From the NCBI GenBank assembly GCA_964536865.1, contig CAZHYN010000009.1:1-32000 (forward strand): a stretch of DNA of 32,000 nucleotides, in the 5' to 3' direction. The notes under the pieces were generated by a model. The model was not told where the DNA came from and did not search any database. It saw only the letters and a list, made by a program, of their open reading frames with translations. The stretch comes from an uncultured Planctomycetia bacterium. Lineage in GTDB: Bacteria > Omnitrophota > Gorgyraeia > Duberdicusellales > 4484-171. The stretch's first letter is position 1, and each line of letters starts with the position of its first letter. Below are positions 2,829 through 32,000 of the stretch, one piece after another. The position numbers and the translations under genes are program-made.

Positions 2829-2883
2829 ATTTTAATTTTAATTTCTAAAACTGTTTTAAAATCCATACTTTTTTGTATTTCTT

Positions 2884-2912
2884 ATTATTCTTTTTTTAAT
2901 CTTACCTGTCAA
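2884..2912 (-). promoter_or_regulatory. Sigma70-like promoter candidate (TTGACA-N17-AATAAT) upstream of the 75-aa ORF
   Basis: On the minus strand, TTGACA is at 2912-2907, followed by a 17-nt spacer and AATAAT at 2889-2884. AT-rich DNA produces many -10-like hexamers, so confidence is modest. Confidence 0.35.
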
Positions 2913-2932
2913 GAAAAATCTCCCCACCTTTA

Positions 2933-3110
2933 ACATATCCACCTTTAACACACCCGACGGGTGTGATTGATTTTAATATAGTACTCTTTTCATGTAAGCT
3001 TGCGCAAATTTAAGTTTTTAAAATTGAAAGTTACAAGTAAGACTTATTTTTTACAAGTTATTCCTATATTTCTTAGCTCAACCTCATAGGTTAAATGGAC
3101 TTTCGCTTTT
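2933..3110 (-). repeat. Hairpin-rich intergenic repeat, copy A
   Basis: Homologous end-to-end with 4287-4484. It shares ACA(T/C)ATCC..TTTAACACACCC-N3-GGGTGTG(A/G)TTG(A/G)TT (hairpin 2949-2965), CTTTTCAT, a TGTAAG...CTTACA long hairpin region, and the terminal hairpin TCAACCTCATAGGTTAA (3078-3094). The last 11 codons and the stop of the GT4 gene lie inside the repeat. Confidence 0.6.
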
Positions 3111-4256
3111 AGATAAAAGACAAAGTCTATAAACATCCAGTGTCTTTTGAGCAGTAAGTTTCCAGTCAAAAAATTTTAATCTTTCTTTACCTTTCTTTAC
3201 CAGCTCTTTTTTTAAATTTTTATCCTCTATAATTTTTTTCATAACAACAGCGAACTCTTTATGATTAAAAGAATCTATCAGATAACCTGCTTTATCTGCC
3301 ACTTCTGGAATAGCACCTACTTTAGAGCTAACTACAGGAACCTCTGAAAAGAAAGCCTCTAAAATCGGCAGGCAAAAACCTTCATATAAAGAAGGAATCA
3401 GACAAAGCTGAGCATTAGATAACAAAATTTTAAATTCTGGAGTCGAAAGATAACCTGTAATTATCACTTTCTCTTGCAATTTATTTTTTCTTATGGTCTC
3501 TACTAGCTGTTTGTAATAAATATTTTCTTCTTCAAAAATACCTGTAAATACCAAATAAAAATCACAGCCTGAAATTTCCAAAAATTCTTTAAAAACCTCT
3601 AAAGCAAATAACGGATTTTTTCTTTTATGATTTATCCCTATAGGGTCTATAATGTAATTTCTATTTTTAAGCCTGTATTTTCCCAAAATCTCTTCTTCAG
3701 AATCTTTACTTATAGGTGCTTTCTTAAACTCTTCATCTAAACCTAAATAAATCACTTTTATTTTCCCCTCTTTTACTTTACAAATTCTAACAATATCCTC
3801 TTTACTTTTATAAGAAACAGCAATTATCCTATCAGCTAAACGAGCAGAAACAAACTGGCGAAATTTATACTTTATTTCTTTTCTTTTGTTTTTAAATTCC
3901 CTCACAATCCAAGGAGCTAAATCATGAATAGTTAAAACATAAGGACATTTTTTAAAAAACGGAAGACCCATATTCCAAGTAGAATGATAAAGATTTATCT
4001 TTAGCTCTTTCAATTTTTCAGGCAAAAACTTAGATATCCATTTTTTCTTCTCTTTTTTTGAACCCGCAAATATGATTTCTTTTACTCTTGAGGAAGCGAA
4101 ATAATCTTTATATTCATCCAAAATTTTTGCATCCGAAAATAAAAAAAATTCCAAATCTTTTCCTACTTCTAAAAGATTTTTAACTAAATTAGAAACATAC
4201 ACTGATATTCCACATCGGGGATAGGCTAAAATTCTTGCATCTATAGCTATTCTCAT
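3084..4256 (-). CDS. Glycosyltransferase family 4 (GT-B, Glycos_transf_1)
   Basis: 390-aa ORF. It has the typical GT4 N-terminus MRIAIDARIL....GISVY and the E-x7-E region SLYEGFCLPILEAF. Confidence 0.85.
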   Translation of the reverse strand: MRIAIDARILAYPRCGISVYVSNLVKNLLEVGKDLEFFLFSDAKILDEYKDYFASSRVKEIIFAGSKKEKKKWISKFLPEKLKELKINLYHSTWNMGLPFFKKCPYVLTIHDLAPWIVREFKNKRKEIKYKFRQFVSARLADRIIAVSYKSKEDIVRICKVKEGKIKVIYLGLDEEFKKAPISKDSEEEILGKYRLKNRNYIIDPIGINHKRKNPLFALEVFKEFLEISGCDFYLVFTGIFEEENIYYKQLVETIRKNKLQEKVIITGYLSTPEFKILLSNAQLCLIPSLYEGFCLPILEAFFSEVPVVSSKVGAIPEVADKAGYLIDSFNHKEFAVVMKKIIEDKNLKKELVKKGKERLKFFDWKLTAQKTLDVYRLCLLSKSESPFNL

Positions 4257-4286
4257 TTAGATATCTGGAATCTTAATGTATTTTTT

Positions 4287-4484
4287 ACACATCCTTTTAA
4301 CACACCCCGCGGGTGTGGTTGGTTGAATAACTTTTCATCGTTTATGCAGAGATAATAACTTACACATAAACTCACGGTCGTGAATTTATATGTAAGTTAT
4401 ATTTTTAAGATAAAGGCTTTGTTTTTGTAAATTATTTCTAAATTTTTTAGTTCAACCTCGTAGGTTGAATGGGTTTTTCTTTGG
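4287..4484 (-). repeat. Hairpin-rich intergenic repeat, copy B
   Basis: Three hairpins: CACACCC-CGC-GGGTGTG at 4301-4317, a 46-nt hairpin at 4355-4400 (16-bp stem plus inner TCAC/GTGA), and TTCAACCT-CGT-AGGTTGAA at 4451-4469. The single mismatch in the long stem is C.A on the plus strand, which is G.U on the minus strand. Confidence 0.6.
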
Positions 4485-4486
4485 TG

Positions 4487-5275
4487 TCAAGTTAACTTTC
4501 TCTCCCTCAACGCTTTCTCCCAAATCTTAAGCCACCTAATTTGAGGACCAATCACATTAAGAATACTCCAAGCAAGTCCATACATTCCATCTTTATACCC
4601 TTTCTTTTTTACATATAGTTTCCAAAATAGTTTTAAAGACTTCCAGGTAAGGCGATATCGTATTTCTCGAAATGACACGCTATCTCTGCTTTTAACAAAT
4701 TCCTCTGCTTCTATTTCTGTATAGAAATTACCGGTGGAGATTACTTCTTTAATATTATCAAAAGCAAAGTGAACAATCTCTGCCTCTGTTTTTCCGACCT
4801 TCCCTTTAACTATAAGTGTTTCATGAACCTTTCCTTTATAATAAGCAAAACCTTTTTTAAAAATTCTTGTGTCCCAACTATAAGCTCCACAGTATTTGAG
4901 AGAGTATCCTAAAAAAACATTTTTTCTCTTCAATTGAAAAGCTACAAAACTGGTATTTCCATTCAAAGCATCCTCTATCTTCTTCTTAGTCTCTTCAGAA
5001 AGCCATTCGTCAGGAGCAAGATGAAAAATCCACCTACCTTTTGCTTTTTCTGTTCCTAAGTTTCTTTGGAAAGAAAAGTCATTATTCAAAGAATGTACTA
5101 TTATCTTACACTGAAATTCATCACATATTTTTAATGTCTCTTTGTCACTACAATCGTCCACTATCACTATCTCATCCGCCCAATTCTTTAAACAACTTAA
5201 ACATTTCCTTAATTCTTCTTTTTCATTTTTAGTAAGTACAACTACAGAAAGACCTTCTTTAATCTTCCCACTCAT
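4487..5275 (-). CDS. Glycosyltransferase family 2
   Basis: 262-aa [21 protein letters not shown]...[13 protein letters not shown] is the canonical GT2 N-terminal/DxD region. Confidence 0.85.
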
Positions 5276-14830: not shown

Positions 14831-15741
14831 CGGTTATTCAATTGTAACTCTGAATTTTTTATCTTAAGAGGATATAACATTTTTATTTCTTTTCTATTAA
14901 AAAAATTTGAGTTCAGAATATGCTTATATTTGTTATATATTTTTAAATATGCTTTATTATAAATTTTTTGAGCTAATTCCTTTTTCCATATTTTCTTTTC
15001 AGAATAAGTTAAATTAACTAAATCAAATGGGATGTATATATTGACTTTACCATCGATAAGAAGTTTAATACTCAAACTTAAATCATCTCCACAAAGGGGC
15101 ATAAAATCTCTATCTAACCCACCATACCTTAAAAGCAATTCTCGCTGAACGGAGAAAGGTCTATTAATTGCGTGAACTTGCCATATTCCAAAAGAATATC
15201 TTTTTTTTACCTTATTGCTTGGGAAATTTTCTCCTTTATGTTTCCTATTTATTTCAATACGTTCATATTTTACTGGAGGAAAAAATTCCTTTTTCAATAT
15301 ACCAAATTTTTTAAGTATTCTTTTTATATTCCATTCAAGAATGTCTTTAAAGGAATTAGGAATTATTTTCAATCCTGCCAGAAAGCCAATAGCTCCTATA
15401 TTCGGGATAGAATTTACAACATCTACAAGTAATGAATCCCAATTTTTATCATATATCCAATTATCGTCTTGAATAAATACAATGTAATCTCCAGTTGCAT
15501 TTTCTAAGGCTAAATTATTGCAAAATATTTCATACTTATTATCTGCGTAAAGAAATTTATATGAGATATCTGTGTTCCTTAAATATTTTTCTGCCTTTTC
15601 ATCTGAACTGTCTTTTAAATCATCAAATACAATTATTACTTCATATGTGTTTTTCCAAGATAAATTACTTAACCAACTTTCAAGCAAAGATTCTACCCAC
15701 TCTTCTTTATTAAATATTGTAAATGCCAATGTAATTTTCAT
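14827..15741 (-). CDS. Glycosyltransferase family 2
   Basis: 304-aa ORF. ITLAFTIFNKEEWVESLL, EVIIVFDD and VFIQDDN (DxD) fit GT2. Confidence 0.75.
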   Translation of the reverse strand: MKITLAFTIFNKEEWVESLLESWLSNLSWKNTYEVIIVFDDLKDSSDEKAEKYLRNTDISYKFLYADNKYEIFCNNLALENATGDYIVFIQDDNWIYDKNWDSLLVDVVNSIPNIGAIGFLAGLKIIPNSFKDILEWNIKRILKKFGILKKEFFPPVKYERIEINRKHKGENFPSNKVKKRYSFGIWQVHAINRPFSVQRELLLRYGGLDRDFMPLCGDDLSLSIKLLIDGKVNIYIPFDLVNLTYSEKKIWKKELAQKIYNKAYLKIYNKYKHILNSNFFNRKEIKMLYPLKIKNSELQLNNR

Positions 15742-23900: not shown

Positions 23901-24314
23901 TTAACTAAAATTACCCTGCCCTACTCCTTTGTACTCTTTGTAAGTTCTCAATCTCTCCCATTCCTGTTTCAAGTAATTATACTCCGCCTCAGCTCGTTTT
24001 AAGAAATAGTAGGTTAAACGAACTTTTTCTTTAAAACCCTTAGGAGTTAATATATAGCTTATCTTCTTAATCTTACCAGGACGATGGGAGAAATTTTTTG
24101 CCTTTATTAACCCTTTTTTTATAAGTTTCCGCAGAAGGTAATTGGTTTTGCCTAAGGAAATATTCAATTTTGAGGAAAGTTGGCGTTGAGTAACATCAGG
24201 GGATTTAGAAAGCTCAGAAAGAAGATAGAATACCTCTTCTTTTAGCTGATCTTTAGAATTCAGATTTAGAAGCCTTTTTCCCTCTATACCTGGTTTACAA
24301 ATTTCTTGCTGCAT
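23901..24314 (-). CDS. MarR-family, EPS-locus-associated winged-helix transcriptional regulator
   Basis: 137-aa ORF. TQRQLSSKLNISLGKTNYLLRKLIKKGLIK followed by YILTPKGFKEK fits the EPS-associated MarR subfamily. It sits directly upstream of the polysaccharide operon. Confidence 0.75.
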   Translation of the reverse strand: MQQEICKPGIEGKRLLNLNSKDQLKEEVFYLLSELSKSPDVTQRQLSSKLNISLGKTNYLLRKLIKKGLIKAKNFSHRPGKIKKISYILTPKGFKEKVRLTYYFLKRAEAEYNYLKQEWERLRTYKEYKGVGQGNFS

Positions 24315-24348: not shown

Positions 24349-24377
24349 ATTCTATTACTACACAATAAATCTGTCAA
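24349..24377 (-). promoter_or_regulatory. Sigma70-like promoter TTGACA-N17-TAGAAT for the MarR gene
   Basis: On the minus strand, TTGACA is at 24377-24372, followed by a 17-nt spacer and TAGAAT at 24354-24349. Confidence 0.45.
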
Positions 24378-24400: not shown

Positions 24401-24598
24401 ATCTACACCCTTACATACCTGGCGGGTGTGATTAGTTAAGCAAGTCTACACATTTTTGGTGCACCAGTGACAAGAGCACCAGTGCACCAGTTTTATTGTA
24501 GCAATCTTCCAATAACAGGTTTCGCTTTCTTTCTGTTTTTGGCTTTAATAGCAATTGTAAGTTGACAAAACAAGTATTGCTTGATCTGTAAACTTACA
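24401..24598 (-). repeat. Diverged third copy of the hairpin-rich intergenic repeat, plus a GCACCAGTG mini-repeat
   Basis: ACACCC...GGGTGTGATTAGTT (24405-24436) parallels CACACCC-N3-GGGTGTGATTGATT of copy A. A TGTAAGTT...AACTTACA hairpin lies at 24556-24598. GCACCAG occurs 3 times within 24459-24490. Confidence 0.45.
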
Positions 24599-24620: not shown

Positions 24621-25955
24621 TTAAAATTCAAAATCCTCAAGGTCATATACTAAAAATCCTTTTTTTCTTAATATTTCTTTATTCTCTATTCTTTTTGCTA
24701 TCAGGCCCCAAAACTTCTTTTTGAAATTTTTCTTTATAACTTCTGTCTTTTCTTTTAACTTTACCAAAATATTTTCCGCCTCTTTATTTTTTAATTCTTT
24801 CCATTTACATTCAAAAAAACCTATTTTATTTTTACCTGTTGTAACTATATCAATCTCATAAGAAGTCCCTTTCTCTTTTCCCCATTGTTTACCGATTTTT
24901 ATAAATTCAAAAGGTAAGTATTTTCTTTTCTCGATAAGAAACTCCATAGATATTTTCTCAAAGACATACCCTAAATATTGATTGTATTCTTTTTTTATCT
25001 CTCCAGCAGAAAAAATTCCCTCTTCAATAAAGGTAAGATTGGGATAAATAAATCTGAACCAGAAACTTAAAAAGTTATCTTTAAGATAATATCTTCCTTT
25101 TCTTGACTTTGTTGATCCTAATATAGGAATTCTTTTTTCTATAAATTCAGTCTCTATTAAGTTTTTCAGATAAGGAGTAATATCAGCACCTTTTAGTCCT
25201 ATATAATTTTTGATTTCTCCTAATTTAGTATTTCCTAAAGCAATTGCCTCCAGTATTTTTTTATAGGTGCTTGTATCTTTAAACTCATATTTCATAAGAA
25301 AATCTATCTCTGTTTTTAGAAATGTATCTATTTTTTTTATTTCTTTATCCAGCCACCTCCAGAAAGGATATTCTATTTTGTCTAAATAAAAAGGGATACC
25401 GTCGCTGAATCCATAGATTTCTATCAGTTCTTCCTTAGAGGCCTGGGGAAAGAAATCTTTTATCTGAAAAATTTTTAATGGTTTTAGTTTTATTTCCCCT
25501 GTTTTTCTTCCAAATAAAGGAGCCTGATAACTTAAGACTTTACTTTCCATTAAAGATATAGATGAACCTAAAAGAATAAGTTTTGTGTGGGAATCTTTTA
25601 ATATAGTATCAACTATTCTTTGAAAAAGAGAGACTATTTTGGGATTCTCTTTTATTAAATTAGGAAACTCATCTATGATAATTATTTTATTTTTCAAGAA
25701 ATTAAATAAAGCCTCCCAATCTGATTGAACATATTTTAGCTGAGGGAAATTTTTTGAGGCTACTGCTTTAAATTTTCTTAAATTATTTTCTTCTGTGGCT
25801 AAGTAGTAAATGAAATTTTTATTACGGACACTTTCTAAAGAAAGAGCGGTTTTTCCTATACGTCTTCTTCCATAAATAATATATAATTCAAATTTTTTAC
25901 TTTTTAGTTTTTCTCTTAAAGCTTCCAGTTCCTTTTCTCTATTTATAAATTTCAT
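24621..25955 (-). CDS. P-loop ATPase, Arch_ATPase (ATPase_2) + DUF234 family
   Basis: 444-aa ORF. N-terminus FINREKELEAL, Walker A GRRRIGKT, Walker B IIIIDEF. A central wHTH-like segment is followed by a C-terminal EIDIV...ECKW nuclease-fold-like DUF234 signature. Confidence 0.85.
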   Translation of the reverse strand: MKFINREKELEALREKLKSKKFELYIIYGRRRIGKTALSLESVRNKNFIYYLATEENNLRKFKAVASKNFPQLKYVQSDWEALFNFLKNKIIIIDEFPNLIKENPKIVSLFQRIVDTILKDSHTKLILLGSSISLMESKVLSYQAPLFGRKTGEIKLKPLKIFQIKDFFPQASKEELIEIYGFSDGIPFYLDKIEYPFWRWLDKEIKKIDTFLKTEIDFLMKYEFKDTSTYKKILEAIALGNTKLGEIKNYIGLKGADITPYLKNLIETEFIEKRIPILGSTKSRKGRYYLKDNFLSFWFRFIYPNLTFIEEGIFSAGEIKKEYNQYLGYVFEKISMEFLIEKRKYLPFEFIKIGKQWGKEKGTSYEIDIVTTGKNKIGFFECKWKELKNKEAENILVKLKEKTEVIKKNFKKKFWGLIAKRIENKEILRKKGFLVYDLEDFEF

Positions 25956-28098: not shown

Positions 28099-28326
28099 TC
28101 ATCTACTTATCAGATAATACCCTGCTCCACCAGTAACAAGAACAGTTGGAGGTTGGAAGTTGGAGGTTTGATGTTTGAGGTTGGATGATTGACGTTTGAT
28201 GATTTGGGTTGATAAAACAAAATCTTCTGATTTAGGAAATTTCTTAGAAAGGTTGTAAATCTCCTTAACTAGATTATTGGCTAACTTATATACTTCTAAA
28301 TTTTCAAAATTATATTTTTGATACAT
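28099..28326 (-). pseudogene. Truncated four-helix-bundle protein gene (23S rRNA IVS-protein / Avd-like family) running into heptamer repeats
   Basis: MYQKYNFENLEVYKLANNLVKEIYNLSKKFPKSEDFVLSTQIIK matches the first ~44 aa of the family (..ENL.VWQ.A..L...IY.LT..FP..E...L.SQ..R). The remaining ~70 aa are missing. The frame continues through heptamer-encoded RQSSNLKHQTSNFQPP. Confidence 0.65.
28144..28213. repeat. Tandem heptamer array, 10 units, consensus NGTT(G/T)GA
   Basis: Read directly: AGTTGGA GGTTGGA AGTTGGA GGTTTGA TGTTTGA GGTTGGA TGATTGA CGTTTGA TGATTTG GGTTGAT. Confidence 0.9.
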
Positions 28327-28330
28327 AATT

Positions 28331-28379
28331 CTAACATCTAACATCTAACATCCAACATCCAACATCTAACATCTAATCA
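28331..28379. repeat. Tandem heptamer array, 7 units, C(T/C)AACAT (reverse complement of the 28144-28213 family)
   Basis: Read directly: CTAACAT x3, CCAACAT x2, CTAACAT, CTAATCA. The reverse complement, GTT(A/G)GAT, is the same family as the downstream array, so the two arrays are inverted. Confidence 0.9.
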
Positions 28380-28499: not shown

Positions 28500-29787
28500 G
28501 CAGTAGCCATTTCCACAAAGGAATGAATTTTATTTTTATCTTGTTAATATTCAATTCTTCTTCATAATCCCAGGTAATTATTGACAAATTTTTACATTTT
28601 AATAAAGAGCTTGCTTTTTTTAAAAAATCTATTTCTTTTTTCTCCATCTCCTCTATTGTATTTATAAAACTAACTTGAATTAAATTTTTAATTTCAGAAC
28701 CTTCCTTTATCAAAAAATCTATCTCCCTTTGCTGATGGTCTTTGTAATAGTAAATTTCCCAATTATTTTGCCAGTAACTCTTTCTTCTTAAAAGCTCTAC
28801 AGCTACCAGATTCTCCATAAGTTTTCCTATATTTTCAGAAATTTTAAAAGAAATAACATCTGCCATTGCTGTATCAATACAATAAATCTTTTTGGGAGCA
28901 ATTTCCTGCTGTTTCAGTTTTGGGGAGTATCTTTCGAGAACAAAGAGTAAATAGGAATCTTCTAAAGCCCCCAACCAATTCTTTAAAGTATGCACATCTT
29001 TTATCTCAAATATATGAGAAAGTTTTCTCATCGTAAATTCAGAAGAAATGTTTGAAATCAGGTATCTGGCAACTCTTTTAAAAGTTTCTTTTCTTTTAAT
29101 TTTATATCTTTTTAAAATATCTTTTTCAATTATATCGGCATAAATTCGAGAAAGTATTTCTCTACCTAATATATAAACTTCAGGAAAACCTCCAATTTTT
29201 ATATACTCTTCTAAAAAACTTTTTATCTGGGCTATCTCAGAAACAGAATAAAAAGTATCTTTTTCAATTTTAAATCCTTTATAATCTAAAAACTCTCGGA
29301 AACTAAAAGGAAATAGATTAAAATCAATGTATCTTCCTGTTAGATGTGTAGAAAGTTCTCCAGAAAGTAATTTAGAATTACTCCCTGTAATTATCAGGCT
29401 TTTAGTTCTTCTTAATCTATTTACAAATAACTCCCATTTTTCAACATTCTGGGGCTCATCTAAAATCATTCTTTCTATTTTTCCATAAAGCTCATAGAAT
29501 GCCTGTAAAATTTTATCTAAATCTTCTGTTTTTATATCTGCTAATCTTTCATCGTCAAAATTAATATAGGCAAAAGCTTTATCTGATAAAGAAGAAAAAA
29601 TCTGCCAAGAAAAGATAGACTTGCCACATCTTCTTACACCTAAGATTGCCAGAATATTAGGGTGGAAAAGAAATTTTTTTAATCTATTCTTTTCTGGTTC
29701 TCGCTCTATAATTTTGCTCTTTTTAAATTTCTCCTCTATCTCTTCTTTTTGAGAAATAATCACTTTTTTAAGTATTTCTACATTCAT
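28477..29787 (-). CDS. AAA_14 + DUF4143 P-loop ATPase (COG1373 family), paralog Z
   Basis: Walker A GVRRCGKS, Walker B MILDEPQ, and a C-terminal REIDFLIK...IQVSF nuclease-fold-like region. The ORF track start at 29793 is GTG; the first ATG is at 29787. The C-terminus ...KIKFIPLWKWLL is shared with 31227-32000. Confidence 0.85.
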   Translation of the reverse strand: MNVEILKKVIISQKEEIEEKFKKSKIIEREPEKNRLKKFLFHPNILAILGVRRCGKSIFSWQIFSSLSDKAFAYINFDDERLADIKTEDLDKILQAFYELYGKIERMILDEPQNVEKWELFVNRLRRTKSLIITGSNSKLLSGELSTHLTGRYIDFNLFPFSFREFLDYKGFKIEKDTFYSVSEIAQIKSFLEEYIKIGGFPEVYILGREILSRIYADIIEKDILKRYKIKRKETFKRVARYLISNISSEFTMRKLSHIFEIKDVHTLKNWLGALEDSYLLFVLERYSPKLKQQEIAPKKIYCIDTAMADVISFKISENIGKLMENLVAVELLRRKSYWQNNWEIYYYKDHQQREIDFLIKEGSEIKNLIQVSFINTIEEMEKKEIDFLKKASSLLKCKNLSIITWDYEEELNINKIKIKFIPLWKWLLRTVDSRQ

Positions 29788-29940
29788 AACCACATATTTT
29801 TTATAAAAGTTTGCAGTTTCAATTTATTATACCTTCATAATTTTACCTCTACAAGTAATTTTTGTCCCAAATTATTACGATTATCATAACCTTATCTTCT
29901 TCGCCTCCCTGAGGCAGATGGTTTCTCAATCTTCTATTCC

Positions 29941-30113
29941 CTACCTTCCTAATTTCTTCTTACACTCCCCTTTCAGCAGCCATTTCCATAAAGGAATGAA
30001 TTTTATTTTTTTACCTTTAAATTTATCTTCTGCTTCGTAATCCCAGGTTATTTTAATAAGTTGTCACTATTAAGTTCTTTACTGGCTTTAATGAAGAGGT
30101 GATTTCTCTTTCC
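29941..30113 (-). pseudogene. Frameshifted 3'-end stump of a third DUF4143 ATPase paralog
   Basis: Hand translation gives ...RNHLFIKASKELNSDNLLK* in one frame, then ITWDYEAEDKFKGKKIKFIPLWKWLLKGEC... in another. This parallels KREIKSLFEASEELKCNNLSIITWDYEAEDEFKGKKIKFIPLWRWLLEGKEL of the 31227 gene. 29974-30048 is about 95% identical to 31245-31319. Confidence 0.7.
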
Positions 30114-30228
30114 TTAATGGATATTTGCCTTAATGGATATTTGGAGACAAAACTTCCAAAAGGAGATCTCGCTTCCGCTCTAAATGTTCTCCTGCATTGA
30201 AGAGATAGCCCTTCACTTTCCAAGAGTC

Positions 30229-30696
30229 TCAGAAGGTTTGCCTTCTACGGCCCTCTTTGCCTTCTTCGTTCAGCTTATCCTTTACCAATAAATCTATTGA
30301 CATACCCCATAAAATCATAAAAGTCGCCCAGCCGGTTTTGTAAAATCTCGTATATTTTTTTAAGTCTAAATCAACGTATTCATGCACAAGAATATTTCTT
30401 AATCCTGCCATACCACGAATGGTTTTAGCAAATTCAGAAGGAATTATTTCCCTCTCCCCTAACTTATCAATAATATCTACATAATCTTCAATTTGATTTT
30501 CTCCTATAGAGGCTAAAATATGATTACCCACATCAAAAATAATTTGAATTGATAGTTGCAATCCGTGACAAATTAACCACTGCTTGCCTAAGGATGAGGA
30601 AAAATCTTTCCAGGGAATATCTCTGTTTTTCTCTAATTCTTTCAAGTAGATACTTAATTCCTGAAACTTCTTTTCAATTACTTCCTTATCAATCAT
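30229..30696 (-). CDS. hepT: HepT-like HEPN-domain toxin (DUF86)
   Basis: 155-aa ORF with the Rx4-6H motif GLRNILVHEY. It sits 42 nt downstream of the nucleotidyltransferase partner. RBS GGGGAGGGG. Confidence 0.85.
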   Translation of the reverse strand: MIDKEVIEKKFQELSIYLKELEKNRDIPWKDFSSSLGKQWLICHGLQLSIQIIFDVGNHILASIGENQIEDYVDIIDKLGEREIIPSEFAKTIRGMAGLRNILVHEYVDLDLKKYTRFYKTGWATFMILWGMSIDLLVKDKLNEEGKEGRRRQTF

Positions 30697-30738
30697 TTTC
30701 CCCTCCCCTTTTTTTGCTCCATTAAAGAAGGTAGTCCG

Positions 30739-31134
30739 CTAACGCGATTTAAGCAGATATTTATAATCGTTATATCTATTAATTGTATCTATCTGAAACT
30801 TAATGCGTTTTCTTTCGTCTTGACTATAGATAATTTTTCCGAAATATAAAATACGGTGCCTTAAGAGAGGATTTGCTTCATCAAGAATTACCAAATCGAC
30901 ATTATTTGTTTTTAACAGCTGAACTAAATCTGCTAATATTTCTGACTTATATCCATAAGGGTAAATCTTTTCTTTAATTCTATCTCTGTCTATAAGTAAG
31001 GCAATATCAATATCACTTAAGGGGTTCATCCTTCCCCGGGCTAAAGAGCCAAATACATAAGCAACCTCAACTTCGGGATGCATTTTGAAATACTCTTTTA
31101 ATATTTCTTGAACTTCATTAATATTTCTTACCAT
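30739..31134 (-). CDS. mntA: MntA-like minimal nucleotidyltransferase antitoxin
   Basis: 131-aa ORF with the minimal NTase signature AYVFGSLARGR...SDIDIALL (GS-x-D-x-D). Confidence 0.85.
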   Translation of the reverse strand: MVRNINEVQEILKEYFKMHPEVEVAYVFGSLARGRMNPLSDIDIALLIDRDRIKEKIYPYGYKSEILADLVQLLKTNNVDLVILDEANPLLRHRILYFGKIIYSQDERKRIKFQIDTINRYNDYKYLLKSR

Positions 31135-31226: not shown

Positions 31227-32000
31227 TCACAACTCCTTTCCTTCCAGCAGCCACCTCCATAAAGGGATGAATTTTATTTTTTTACCTTTAAATTCATCTT
31301 CTGCTTCGTAATCCCAGGTAATAATTGATAGATTATTGCACTTCAATTCTTCACTTGCCTCAAATAAAGATTTTATTTCTCTTTTCCTAACTTCAAAATT
31401 ACTTATTTCATAACAAGTCTGCATTAATTCTTCAATCTCTGCTTTTTTTAAAACAAAATCAACTTCTTTTTTATTTCTTGTTTGATAATAAAAAACATCT
31501 CTATTTAATCTATAACCCCTTCTTAAAGTTTCAACAAAAACCAGATTTTCCATTAGTCTTCCTGTATTTTGAGAAAACCTGAATGCTTTTGCCAGAATAA
31601 AACCATTATTAACAAGATAAATCTTTCTGGGAGACTTAATCTGCTCTTTTACTTTAAAAGAAAACCTATCCAGTGGGAAAAAGAGATAAGCTTCTTCAAG
31701 ATATTTTAAATATTTCTGAAGTGTGTTTGTGCTTCTGAATTTTAAAATATTTTTTAACTTATTAAAACTGAACTCAGAACAAAAATTACTTATTAAATAA
31801 ACTGCCAAATCATAAATTTCTTGAGAAAATCTTACTCTGTATCTTTTTACTACATCTTTAAATAAGATAGCATCAAAAAGTGTCTCTAAATAAGTTTCTG
31901 CAGGCAAATTCTTTAAAACTACTTCTGGAAAACCACCTTTTTTAAGATATTCATCTAAATAACCTAAAATTTTACCTTTGACTTCAGGTATTTTTAAATA
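31227..32000 (-). CDS. AAA_14 + DUF4143 ATPase, paralog X (5' end outside the window)
   Basis: The listed ORF starts at a TTG (31907). The frame stays open to position 32000 (YLKIPEVKGKILGYLDEYLKKGGFPEVVLKN-LPAETY...) and aligns with residues ~190 onward of paralog Z (FLEEYIKIGGFPEVYIL...). The gene is therefore partial. Confidence 0.85.
   Translation of the reverse strand, partial: YLKIPEVKGKILGYLDEYLKKGGFPEVVLKNLPAETYLETLFDAILFKDVVKRYRVRFSQEIYDLAVYLISNFCSEFSFNKLKNILKFRSTNTLQKYLKYLEEAYLFFPLDRFSFKVKEQIKSPRKIYLVNNGFILAKAFRFSQNTGRLMENLVFVETLRRGYRLNRDVFYYQTRNKKEVDFVLKKAEIEELMQTCYEISNFEVRKREIKSLFEASEELKCNNLSIITWDYEAEDEFKGKKIKFIPLWRWLLEGKEL

Follow-up and report, generated by a model that had tools for sequence, protein, structure and literature searches.

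The window analysed here is a stretch of 32 kb in which the genes considered are all encoded on the minus strand. A GT4-family glycosyltransferase gene (3084..4256, minus strand) is bracketed by two noncoding elements, copy A (2829-3100) and copy B (4257-4486), and a GT2 gene (4487-5275, minus strand) is situated upstream of copy B. The original prediction that two hairpin-rich elements surround GT4 in direct orientation was confirmed. Both copies have an M5 hairpin at the stop codon of the gene upstream and a GC hairpin, M4. Order and orientation of the two hairpins agree between the copies, and the chance expectation for these pairs is 0. The M5 hairpin, CCATTYAACCTAYGAGGTTGARCTAA, was located at 3073-3098 and 4447-4472 (0 expected), while M4, CACACCC-N3-GGGTGTG followed by TTAAA, was located at 2944-2965 and 4296-4317. 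No further match to the GC hairpin was found in the 32 kb at up to three mismatches, and 0 are expected from shuffled sequences. The likeness of A to B is patchy: a 41-nt stretch is 85% identical and one of 22 nt is 91% identical, the middle part could not be aligned, and the longest exact identity is 12 nt. The intervals 2829-3083 and 4257-4486 had been described as the only sizeable gaps, which proved incorrect, since 1169-1404 is a 236-nt gap without an element. Small ORFs within the gaps (2856-2951 and 4253-4375) were rejected as coding because the reading frames of A and B differ.

Copy B (minus strand) makes up the whole GT2-GT4 intergenic region and reads, in sense order, M5, linker LK, M2, a 30-nt spacer, M4 and a 36-nt tail. 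Its M5 hairpin (4449..4472, minus strand), TTCAACCT-ACG-AGGTTGAA, comprises 8 bp with a minimum free energy of -8.1 kcal/mol and begins 14 nt past the GT2 stop codon. The conserved, A-rich linker LK, AAATTTAGAAATAATTTACAAAAACAAAGCCTTTATCTTAAAA, follows at 4403..4445 (minus strand), and its core, TAGRAATAAYTTRCAAAA, is nearly invariant among independent copies. M2 (4355..4400, minus strand) is a near-perfect 22-bp hairpin, ATAACTTACATATAAATTCACG / CGTGAGTTTATGTGTAAGTTAT, which includes two U.G pairs when read in sense and has a minimum free energy of -25.3 kcal/mol in sense versus -17.6 kcal/mol in antisense. Two Logan contigs end in or beside this hairpin, at window positions 4352 and 4381. 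The GC-hairpin module M4, AACCAACCACACCC-GCG-GGGTGTGTTAAAAGG, is located at 4293..4324 (minus strand); a promoter scan revealed no recognisable promoter behind it, and homology of the tail to a CRISPR leader block was discarded as the comparison was not convincing. Covariance model R1 gave 141.8 bits for copy B at 4354-4474. Copy B is ~92% identical to the orthologous element in two related loci (L021/L008), with 80.6% identity for GT2 and 89.7% for GT4 in the flanking DNA.

The M5 hairpin of copy A (3073..3098, minus strand) also has two U.G pairs and folds with -5.6 kcal/mol in sense and -2.9 kcal/mol in antisense. The GT4 stop codon (3084-3086) sits within it, and the last codons of the gene (PFNL-stop) are read from this module. 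Covariance model R1 and alignment identified a decayed linker and M2 region at 3003..3072 (minus strand), the model matching copy A at 3003-3100 with 55 bits (E = 3e-8). The long TGTAAG/CTTACA hairpin that had been predicted for both copies is perfect in copy B (22 bp) and present in copy A only as a decayed version. M4 of copy A (2944..2969, minus strand), AATCAATCACACCC-GTC-GGGTGTGTTAAAGG, is followed 32 nt downstream by a promoter-like site, TTGACA-17-AATAAT (2884..2912, minus strand), called by its consensus match at 11 of 12 positions and located upstream of a 75-aa ORF (2601-2828).

A third, partial copy (copy C) was found at 24405-24598 on the minus strand. Its M1 module, the hairpin TGTAAGTTTACA...CAACTTACA (24553..24598, minus strand), shows 91% identity to the M1 consensus, folds with -16.0 kcal/mol and begins directly behind the stop codon of an ATPase gene (24621-25955). 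Next comes a segment resembling a decayed CRISPR repeat (24498..24533, minus strand), ~68% identical to GAGAGAAAATAAGACCCGTTAATTAGGGGATTGCGAC by hand alignment; it was assigned as a repeat by its position, the junction after M1 being the same as that of a perfect repeat in locus L009, with BLAST falling short of E = 0.05. The M3 module, a GGTGCAC hairpin (24458..24492, minus strand; -22.2 kcal/mol), and a diverged M4, in which GCTTAACTAATCACACCCGCC is fused to GTATGTAAGGGTGTAG (24405..24444, minus strand), complete the copy. Downstream of it, a promoter-like site, TTGACA-17-TAGAAT (24349..24377, minus strand; 11/12), precedes a MarR-like gene (23901-24314).

A functional sense-strand RNA structure had been proposed on the basis of G.U pairs that would be C.A mismatches on the other strand. 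For copies A and B this observation stands, as positions 3079/3093 and 4365/4390 form U.G pairs on the minus strand, but it does not extend to the family: among 14 units, six fold better in sense, five in antisense and three equally well in both. With no consistent sense preference in folding energy, the palindromes could also matter at the DNA level. Nor was support for RNA structure obtained from covariation, since an alignment of nine units with 95.8% of cells paired contained no double-sided, compensatory change, and shuffles scored equally. Comparison with Rfam gave no family match at the gathering score in the window; in seven related loci containing all modules, hits were at chance level at E up to 1, together with weak CRISPR-DR8 matches on array repeats. 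The predicted lack of U-tracts was verified in the sense direction behind every hairpin, the sense tails being CUAAAAAA for M5, UUAUCUCU for M2 and UUAAAAGG for M4. T-rich tails occur on the antisense strand only, which does not correspond to intrinsic terminators, and canonical terminators are not enriched anywhere in the region.

Scans of public collections revealed the modules in at least five Omnitrophota-type metagenome-assembled genomes (MAGs) and in several metagenomes, with several copies per genome. The exact M2 20-mer was present on nine contigs in five MAGs, including three contigs each in two of them, and M4 matched two more metagenome contigs. Full units were found with the covariance model in L007-L015, L021, L030 (three copies in 16.5 kb) and L033. 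The 32-kb window carries three copies, and a further M4 copy lies ~640 nt past its end; the number per genome is extrapolated from such fragments. A genome contig collection scanned with the M4 motif gave no matches, and viral contigs scanned with the M2, M5 and CRISPR-repeat motifs gave 0, 2 and 0, the two being chance matches in phage coding sequence. A BLAST search of copy B against plasmids returned nothing. Matches in two high-GC metagenome loci (L001 and L002) were rejected as chance agreement with the M4 motif. Elsewhere the flanking genes are unrelated and include CoaB/FabF, KAS, lipoproteins, CRISPR arrays and others, so a novel cis-regulatory leader tied to the glycan operon, one of three roles originally suggested, is unsupported.

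All copies are situated between ORFs or overlap just the last codons of one. Eleven of the 12 scorable independent copies are in sense orientation relative to the flanking genes. They typically begin 0-80 nt behind a stop codon, often with a TTGACA-type promoter close downstream, and in most of them M5 overlaps the upstream stop or follows it by 4-80 nt. Promoter-like TTGACA/TTGCAA-16/17-TAxxxT sites follow the elements in at least seven loci. A promoter within the linker, TTGCAA-17-TAAAAN, was considered and rejected: its -35-like part is conserved, its -10-like part falls in the variable stretch and lacks the final T, and the scan did not flag it. Several polymorphisms were detected. In L008/L021, the M4 part of the element has undergone a tandem duplication of 76 nt. 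Between L030 and L033 the flanks are 100% identical and the element differs by a diverged patch and a 63-nt insertion/deletion of M1. An M4 block present in L003 is absent at the orthologous site in L004. In several assemblies, contigs terminate inside modules. An empty-site comparison at the CoaB locus gave no boundaries, the next relatives being just 62-67% identical.

Copies A, B and C are probably the local members of a modular palindromic intergenic repeat family, previously undescribed and dispersed in Omnitrophota, with the REP/BIME mosaics of enterobacteria and the BOX elements of pneumococci as closest analogues. The most likely reading is that of a new mosaic repeat family of this kind, with a role as 3'-UTR or intercistronic hairpins. 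The family is assembled from short modules, mostly hairpins: the 8-bp hairpin M5, the A-rich linker LK, the 22-bp hairpin M2, M1, M3 and the GC hairpin M4, with M6 and M7 as further palindromic modules seen in relatives. Combinations of these vary under a fixed order and orientation, and the modules fill the slot between a gene's stop codon and the start codon or promoter of its co-directional downstream neighbour. Recombination or gene conversion between copies, or the action of a transposase, may have spread and reshuffled the modules. The case for mobility comes from distribution and polymorphism only, with no transposase, RAYT or target-site duplication found. The literature and Rfam searches returned no description of an interspersed repeat family, a terminator architecture or an ncRNA repertoire in Omnitrophota.

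In this repeat family, transcription would place the elements at the 3' end of the message from upstream or in RNA between cistrons. The hairpins may then form barriers to 3'-5' exonucleases, the 22-bp stem of M2 could be a site for RNase III, and the elements may be weak pause or termination sites without a U-tract. Copy A has a strong promoter-like site downstream and would for that reason mark the boundary of a transcription unit. Copy B would remain within a transcript and could uncouple the mRNA stability of GT2 from that of GT4. The suggested role in RNA processing or stability inside the operon is plausible as a consequence of carrying such hairpins.

REP and BIME elements of Escherichia coli and relatives are known to stabilise mRNA 3' ends, to cause weak termination and to bind proteins, and the same effects are proposed here. 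Both families combine short palindromes with non-palindromic linker motifs into mosaics. In the present one, the palindromes M5, M2, M4, M1 and M3 are short, noncoding and outside genes, and they are joined to other motifs in ways that vary by locus and strain. Both are also multi-copy and extragenic, typically at gene 3' ends or between cistrons, and transcribed, as we infer for the family described here. The differences are equally clear, as there is no sequence similarity, the units keep one orientation instead of alternating, and the 22-bp AT-rich stem is much longer than a REP. No GTAG-type 5' tetranucleotide was evident in the alignments and no RAYT gene is encoded in the window. Moreover, the host belongs to an uncultured Omnitrophota lineage, and CRISPR arrays, too, have the modules at their flanks. 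In Streptococcus pneumoniae, BOX elements (boxA-boxB-boxC) have a fixed module order with variable module number, internal tandem duplication, an intergenic position and stable folds. Modular build, fixed order, tandem duplication of internal modules, intergenic location and stable folding are shared with our family, whereas sequence and host are unrelated, and to our knowledge BOX elements have no link to CRISPR flanks.

Among the roles originally suggested, a MITE-like repeat came closest, in that the elements are multi-copy, occur in multiple genomes and adjoin unrelated genes. Like the Correia elements of Neisseria and MITEs, they are small noncoding repeats, here presumably co-transcribed with their neighbours, with a long hairpin as a possible RNase III substrate and occasionally a promoter. 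Those elements, however, are bounded by terminal inverted repeats and duplicate their target site. Neither feature was seen here: the end CCATTCAACC... does not form an inverted repeat with ...GTGTAAGTTAT or ...GGGTGTGTTAAA, and no duplicated flank was found.

It is possible, though unlikely, that the elements are non-autonomous and moved by a transposase encoded elsewhere. The best fit would be a single-strand type recognising hairpins, such as IS200/IS605-derived palindrome-associated elements or REP/RAYT. Hairpins do lie near both ends, and terminal inverted repeats are absent. Orientation is uniform and no duplication was seen; the uniformity would then stem from insertion into a single replication strand and not from RNA function. 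In 15 of 15 loci the sense strand is the one richer in G, but gene orientation confounds GC skew. A loosely A-rich sequence plus CC lies upstream of M5 in most copies. About 200 kb of related loci yielded neither a clean empty site nor a target motif or transposase gene, no tnpA was detected, and the window contains no transposase-like gene. M5 and M4, the hairpins at the two ends, show no sequence relationship, in contrast to the left and right ends of IS200/IS605. The presence or absence of modules does vary between near-identical strains, yet what was observed are modules swapped inside the element or duplicated in tandem rather than gain or loss of a whole element.

A connection to CRISPR arrays deserves separate consideration, as arrays in relatives (L004, L009, L013 and L014) have these modules as their leader and trailer. 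In L009, M1 plus 17 nt adjoins a perfect 37-nt repeat. The first repeat in L004 and L014 is adjoined by M4 together with a block of 100 nt that contains a TATAAT box. M3 in relatives stands behind the last CRISPR repeat, and in L003, L013 and L014 it is followed by M4. Copy C has the order leader module, one decayed repeat and trailer, and L013/L014 present the same series of M1, identical junction, one decayed repeat and trailer modules. Based on these arrangements, A, B and C could be relict or seed CRISPR loci, either array-less or one-repeat remnants of collapsed arrays or minimal leader-repeat units able to seed new ones. The leader would be M5-LK-M2-M1, or M4 plus ~100 nt, the trailer would be M3-M4, and hairpins and promoters would serve pre-crRNA transcription. 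We regard this as unlikely. Copies A and B contain no repeat-like segment, M1 or M3, and most members (L007, L010, L011/L030 and L015) lie between housekeeping genes with no repeat nearby. The window has no cas gene, and no anti-repeat complementarity was found. A tracrRNA function was likewise rejected, the duplex energy with the CRISPR repeat being no better than that of shuffles. The arrays could also be just another intergenic site in which these repeats collect.

The multicopy 'long repeat' of Methanocaldococcus jannaschii, a conserved CRISPR leader, similarly places the same sequence before many small arrays. Here, some copies have one repeat or none (copy C, L013/L014 and L009), most, including A and B, are repeat-less, between housekeeping or glycan genes and far from cas, and leader and trailer modules are also fused together. 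Standalone CRISPR repeat-like elements are among the subjects discussed in a preprint (bioRxiv 10.1101/2023.03.03.530964). Nothing relevant to Omnitrophota repeats or dispersed CRISPR leaders was found in the literature searched. A bolder version, to which we give slightly less credence still, is that the modules are portable CRISPR leader/trailer cassettes and that the lineage disperses leader-(repeat)-trailer units genome-wide, operons included. A, B and C would then be seeds of mini-arrays or scars of collapsed ones.

A function as DNA-level protein-binding palindromes is improbable. Some BIMEs are reported to have such a role. The elements would be operators or architectural sites, for instance for gyrase, an IHF-like protein or a dimeric regulator, and M4 would act on the promoter that often follows it. 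M4 is a perfect 17-bp palindrome with stems that are almost invariant rather than covarying, and strand-neutral folding energies would fit a role in double-stranded DNA. On the other hand, a decayed M4 in L013/L014 (CACATAC-TGA-GTATG) retains its stem through two paired changes, which fits a folded strand better than a fixed operator. In copies A and C and in L023, a TTGACA box lies 30-45 nt downstream of M4, but copy B has an M4 with no recognisable promoter behind it, and no candidate binding protein could be linked to the elements.

The original prediction preferred a device specific to this operon, and the comparison of GT4 neighbourhoods bears on it directly. Ca. Omnitrophica 4484_70.2 has a GT4 gene of 91% identity that is packed tightly among other genes without elements, and DNA homology of GT4 to this element-free ortholog spans 4257-3115 only. 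L020 provides a third genomic context. GT4 has thus changed neighbours in this lineage, and the elements coincide with the synteny breakpoints around it. Its junctions are two of the three non-overlapping ones of the cluster, the third (1169-1404) being without an element. Under the repeat-family reading, this may be why the two elements bracket GT4. Contigs with GT2, GT4 or the downstream 75-aa gene come from just three assemblies, identical for each of the genes, and the arrangement never varies. The suggestion that the direct repeats mediate deletion or duplication of the GT4 gene received no support: none of the contigs found is a GT4-deleted A/B recombinant, the arrangement is constant, and the 12-nt identity is too short for efficient homologous recombination.

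As in integron gene cassettes, a single promoter-less gene lies between imperfectly repeated structured sites, and loosely attC-like core sites are present, with RYYYAAC in M5 (ATTCAAC / ATTTAAC) and GTTAAAR behind M4. It is nevertheless very improbable that the elements are a structured cis-regulatory RNA specific to the operon, or cassette boundaries of an integron-like kind, dedicated to switching or exchanging GT4. The distribution has largely refuted this already, as the family adjoins unrelated genes and single elements occur between non-cassette genes. In addition, the ends are self-contained hairpins which do not pair into one R''-L''/L'-R' bulged stem, GTTAAAG and GTTAAAA miss the GTTRRRY core, the window encodes no integrase, and Rfam matches, covariation and deletion variants are lacking.

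For this window, the results mean that the flanks of GT4 do not form a device dedicated to glycan switching. A defined family of modular repeats accounts for the breaks of this lineage's MAGs at certain intergenic sites, and it provides markers for strain typing and for transcription-unit boundaries. It is unusual for modules to be held in common with CRISPR leaders and trailers; if causal, this would bear on how arrays are founded and lost; were the modules indeed portable cassettes, the birth, death and relocation of arrays would be tied to an interspersed repeat family. Omnitrophota are uncultured bacteria with small genomes, and the family offers in them a tractable case for the origin of REP/BIME-like elements outside Proteobacteria.

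Every gene in the window lies on the minus strand, and the elements are described here 5' to 3' on that strand. Copy B occupies the gap between the GT2 glycosyltransferase gene (4487-5275) and the GT4 glycosyltransferase gene (3084-4256), and copy A that between GT4 and a 75-aa ORF (2601-2828). Both begin with the hairpin CCATTYAACCTAYGAGGTTGARCTAA (3073-3098 in A, 4447-4472 in B) and end with CACACCC-N3-GGGTGTG-TTAAA (2944-2965 and 4296-4317, respectively). Neither sequence matched elsewhere in the 32 kb with up to three mismatches, and shuffled sequences are expected to give no match, which confirms the two related elements of the original prediction. Their sharing holds for the end hairpins, while the middle of copy A is a decayed relative of that of copy B. 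The GT4 stop codon is located inside the first hairpin of copy A, and the first hairpin of copy B begins 14 nt past the GT2 stop. Copy B has a much more stable fold than its shuffles (z = -5.5), mainly because of the 22-bp hairpin that it carries at 4355-4400; copy A, taken in full, shows no such margin (z = -1.2). Contrary to what had been claimed, these are not the only sizeable gaps: a third gap of 236 nt (1169-1404) lies in the cluster without an element. It separates a half-size GT1-like ORF from a GT9 heptosyltransferase-like gene and contains no repeat module. The ORF at 1405-1821 matches the C-terminal half only of Glyco_trans_1_2, the adjoining ORF (1827-2324) has no Pfam match, and from sequence 1405-2324 looks like a split or frameshifted glycosyltransferase gene.

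Comparison of all loci resolved the family into modules: an 8-bp hairpin (M5), an A-rich linker of ~43 nt with the nearly invariant core TAGRAATAAYTTRCAAAA (LK), a 22-bp hairpin based on AACTTACA (M2), a hairpin TGTAAGTT...AACTTACA (M1), a GGTGCAC hairpin (M3), GCTTGCTTAACCAATCACACCC-GCC-GGGTGTGTTAAAAGG (M4), and the palindromes TAACTTGACAAAATCTTTTGAAAATAAAGTGTCAAGTTA (M6; contigs L003 262-345, L009 2618-2654, L010 1586-1620 and 2825-2862, L020 1348-1386) and GTTTCCACCCCAGGGGTGGAAAC (M7; L023 3605-3627). M6 occurs singly or in tandem in the same lineage and sometimes adjoins an M5-M2 unit. At the CoaB locus (L011/L030) M7 also lies immediately upstream of M5, and a looser form of it is present in the element-free genome L016 (~4415-4440). 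M5-LK-M2 forms a tight 121-nt unit, and a covariance model trained on nine copies of it recovered all known copies (55 bits for window copy A), adding two copies in L030 and one decayed antisense copy 3' of GT4 in L020/L021. The content 3' of M2 varies: nothing, M1, M4, M6, or M1 with CRISPR-related modules behind it. Copy B reads M5-LK-M2-spacer-M4, copy A M5-decayed LK/M2-M4, and copy C (24405-24598) M1-decayed repeat-M3-diverged M4. A fourth M4 of this genome (L023 3819-3849) lies ~640 nt beyond the high end of the window, with TTGACA-17-TAAAAT 40 nt further on.

Four or five AAA_14/DUF4143 ATPase paralogs cluster at 24.6-32 kb. A 142-nt repeat of 61-72% identity (28501-28642, 29974-30115, 31245-31386) represents the 3' ends of such genes, its middle copy, in the apparent gap 29794-30228, probably being a gene fragment. 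This region also encodes a toxin-antitoxin pair (HepT-like RNase and MNT/Pol-beta nucleotidyltransferase, 30229-31134) and a homolog of 23S rRNA intervening-sequence proteins (28099-28344).

The best-supported interpretation is that A, B and C belong to a new REP/BIME/BOX-like family of interspersed mosaic palindromic repeats. The genes beside the copies are unrelated, including GT2/GT4, CoaB/FabF, a second KAS, a small zinc-ribbon-like ORF, lipoproteins, a glutamine-synthetase-like gene, an SGNH hydrolase and others. Eleven of the 12 independent, scorable copies are co-oriented with their neighbours, the exception being the decayed L020 copy. M5 spans the upstream stop codon in copy A and at the CoaB locus, whose protein is ~12 aa longer than all homologs; at other loci it lies 4-80 nt past the stop in most copies. 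At least seven loci carry a good sigma-70-type hexamer pair between element and next gene (TTGACA-17-AATAAT after copy A, TTGACA-17-TAGAAT after copy C, TTGCAA-16-TATAAT before fabF, TTGACA-16-TATAAT in L020); none follows copy B. Stop-proximal M5 and downstream hexamers therefore indicate that the family fills the slot between a coding end and the signals that start the next gene. Read antisense, M5 (4449-4486) is followed by the T-run GGTTTTTC, and its L030 equivalent (15425-15460) by TGGTTTTTTAGG; because of this T-run it resembles, in sequence, a canonical intrinsic terminator aimed against the genes.

A 37-nt repeat, GAGAGAAAATAAGACCCGTTAATTAGGGGATTGCGAC, builds arrays with unique 38-46 nt spacers in L004, L013 and L014. 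Its 3' end, ATTGCGAC, resembles a ATTGAAAC-type handle, so the arrays presumably run in the same direction as the modules. M1 plus 17 nt directly precedes a perfect repeat in L009, the first repeat adjoins M4 and a 100-nt block with TATAAT in L004 and L014, and in L003, L013 and L014 the last repeat is degenerate and followed by M3 and then M4. In L013/L014 and copy C, M1 leads through the same junction into one decayed repeat, after which come trailer modules. Since modules adjoin array repeats, family modules and array flanks are the same sequences. An origin as relics or seeds of CRISPR leaders and trailers, to which the adjoining M1 or M4 (L009, L004, L014) and the decayed repeat of copy C would point, is nevertheless unlikely: the window has no cas gene, and no anti-repeat complementarity was found. 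Spread by a hairpin-recognising transposon is likewise improbable. The reading of the modules as portable CRISPR leader/trailer cassettes, the most novel of those left, is also unlikely. In L014, M3 hairpins lie between truncated repeats in a spacer-like position (384-620, 908-1040), and three mini-arrays within 1 kb are separated by M3-M4-leader blocks, which suggests that array ends were duplicated repeatedly. In L009 (1-300) a single repeat and one spacer-length segment run directly into an ORF fragment whose C-terminal motif, RRGMSWSEQGAQSLLKIRQTIANGEWENWW, resembles the end of an IS transposase, as if an element had inserted into the array.

The repeats are themselves changeable. The copy B ortholog in L008/L021 is ~92% identical over 230 aligned nt, next to GT2 and GT4 DNA at 80.6% and 89.7%, and has a 76-nt tandem duplication of its M4 part. 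The CoaB proteins of L030 and L033 are identical, and so (100%) is the DNA on both sides of the element; inside it the two differ by an M2 substitution patch and a 63-nt M1 indel, the pattern left by exchange with a further copy. At an orthologous site L003 has an M4 block that L004 lacks, and short-read contigs of several assemblies break off within modules. The M5 unit at L010 2874-3079 carries M2 twice, the first copy diverged (ATAATTCACACATAGACTCACG/CGTGAATTTATCTGTGAATTAT), another internal module duplication.

GT4 itself occurs in three differing neighbourhoods: GT2-[B]-GT4-[A]-75 aa/VanZ in the window, Wzy-GT2-[B-like]-GT4-[M6 + decayed antisense unit]-PRTase/EF-G-like in L008/L020/L021, and DUF3108-GT4-GT2 fragment in Ca. 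Omnitrophica 4484_70.2, with overlapping start and stop codons and no element. Window and 4484_70.2 share DNA homology from the GT4 start codon to ~30 nt short of its stop, so the elements lie at synteny breakpoints. The proposed GT4 deletion through A and B left no sign: their longest exact match is 12 nt, and the contigs found with GT2, GT4 and the 75-aa gene come from a single set of three assemblies, in which the genes are never apart.

The hairpins are conserved (95.8% of cells paired), with wholly one-sided variation, as G.U or mismatch, in the unit alignment. No compensatory change occurs in the nine-unit alignment, where column shuffles score as well; in one decayed M4 (CACATAC-TGA-GTATG), two paired changes leave the stem intact. 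The wobble positions cited for a sense-strand RNA are correct in A and B, and wobbles outnumber C.A mismatches on that strand of the nine-unit alignment, but across 14 units folding shows no consistent preference for the sense strand (better in six, worse in five, equal in three). The conserved palindromes thus fit RNA, single-stranded DNA and duplex DNA alike; DNA-level protein-binding sites are a very improbable explanation.

Rfam gave no match. Pattern scans for the GC-hairpin motif found none in a collection of one genome per species and two true relatives, L003 and L004, in metagenomes, two further high-GC matches being due to chance. Scanning public collections for a 20-mer of the long hairpin yielded nine contigs from five MAGs (three contigs each from two of them), labelled Candidatus Omnitrophota or 'uncultured Planctomycetia' apart from one Aenigmatarchaeota, a probable mis-bin. 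By protein searches the window belongs to Omnitrophota, with the GT4 protein 88% identical to one of Ca. Omnitrophica bacterium 4484_70.2; the window proteins were found in three assemblies, the ENA ERZ27248455 and Logan SRR7517633 versions being 100% identical to it and the third being probably its source. The distribution of the family effectively excludes an operon-specific riboregulator and an integron-like cassette boundary, and the interpretation in the original prediction finds partial support.

As mosaic palindromic repeats, the elements would occupy a 3'-UTR or intercistronic slot and be reshuffled by exchange between copies. By analogy, they would likely affect transcript ends: the hairpins may be exonuclease barriers, RNase III might cut in the long M2 stem, and the elements could serve as pausing or termination sites that lack a U-tract. 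The region shows no enrichment of canonical terminators. Copy A probably marks a transcription-unit boundary, since an 11/12 promoter match follows it, in which case the '23-kb operon' comprises two or more units; copy B would lie inside a transcript. The repeat family is new, of a known kind of element and from a poorly studied host phylum, and its module overlap with CRISPR array flanks is unusual.
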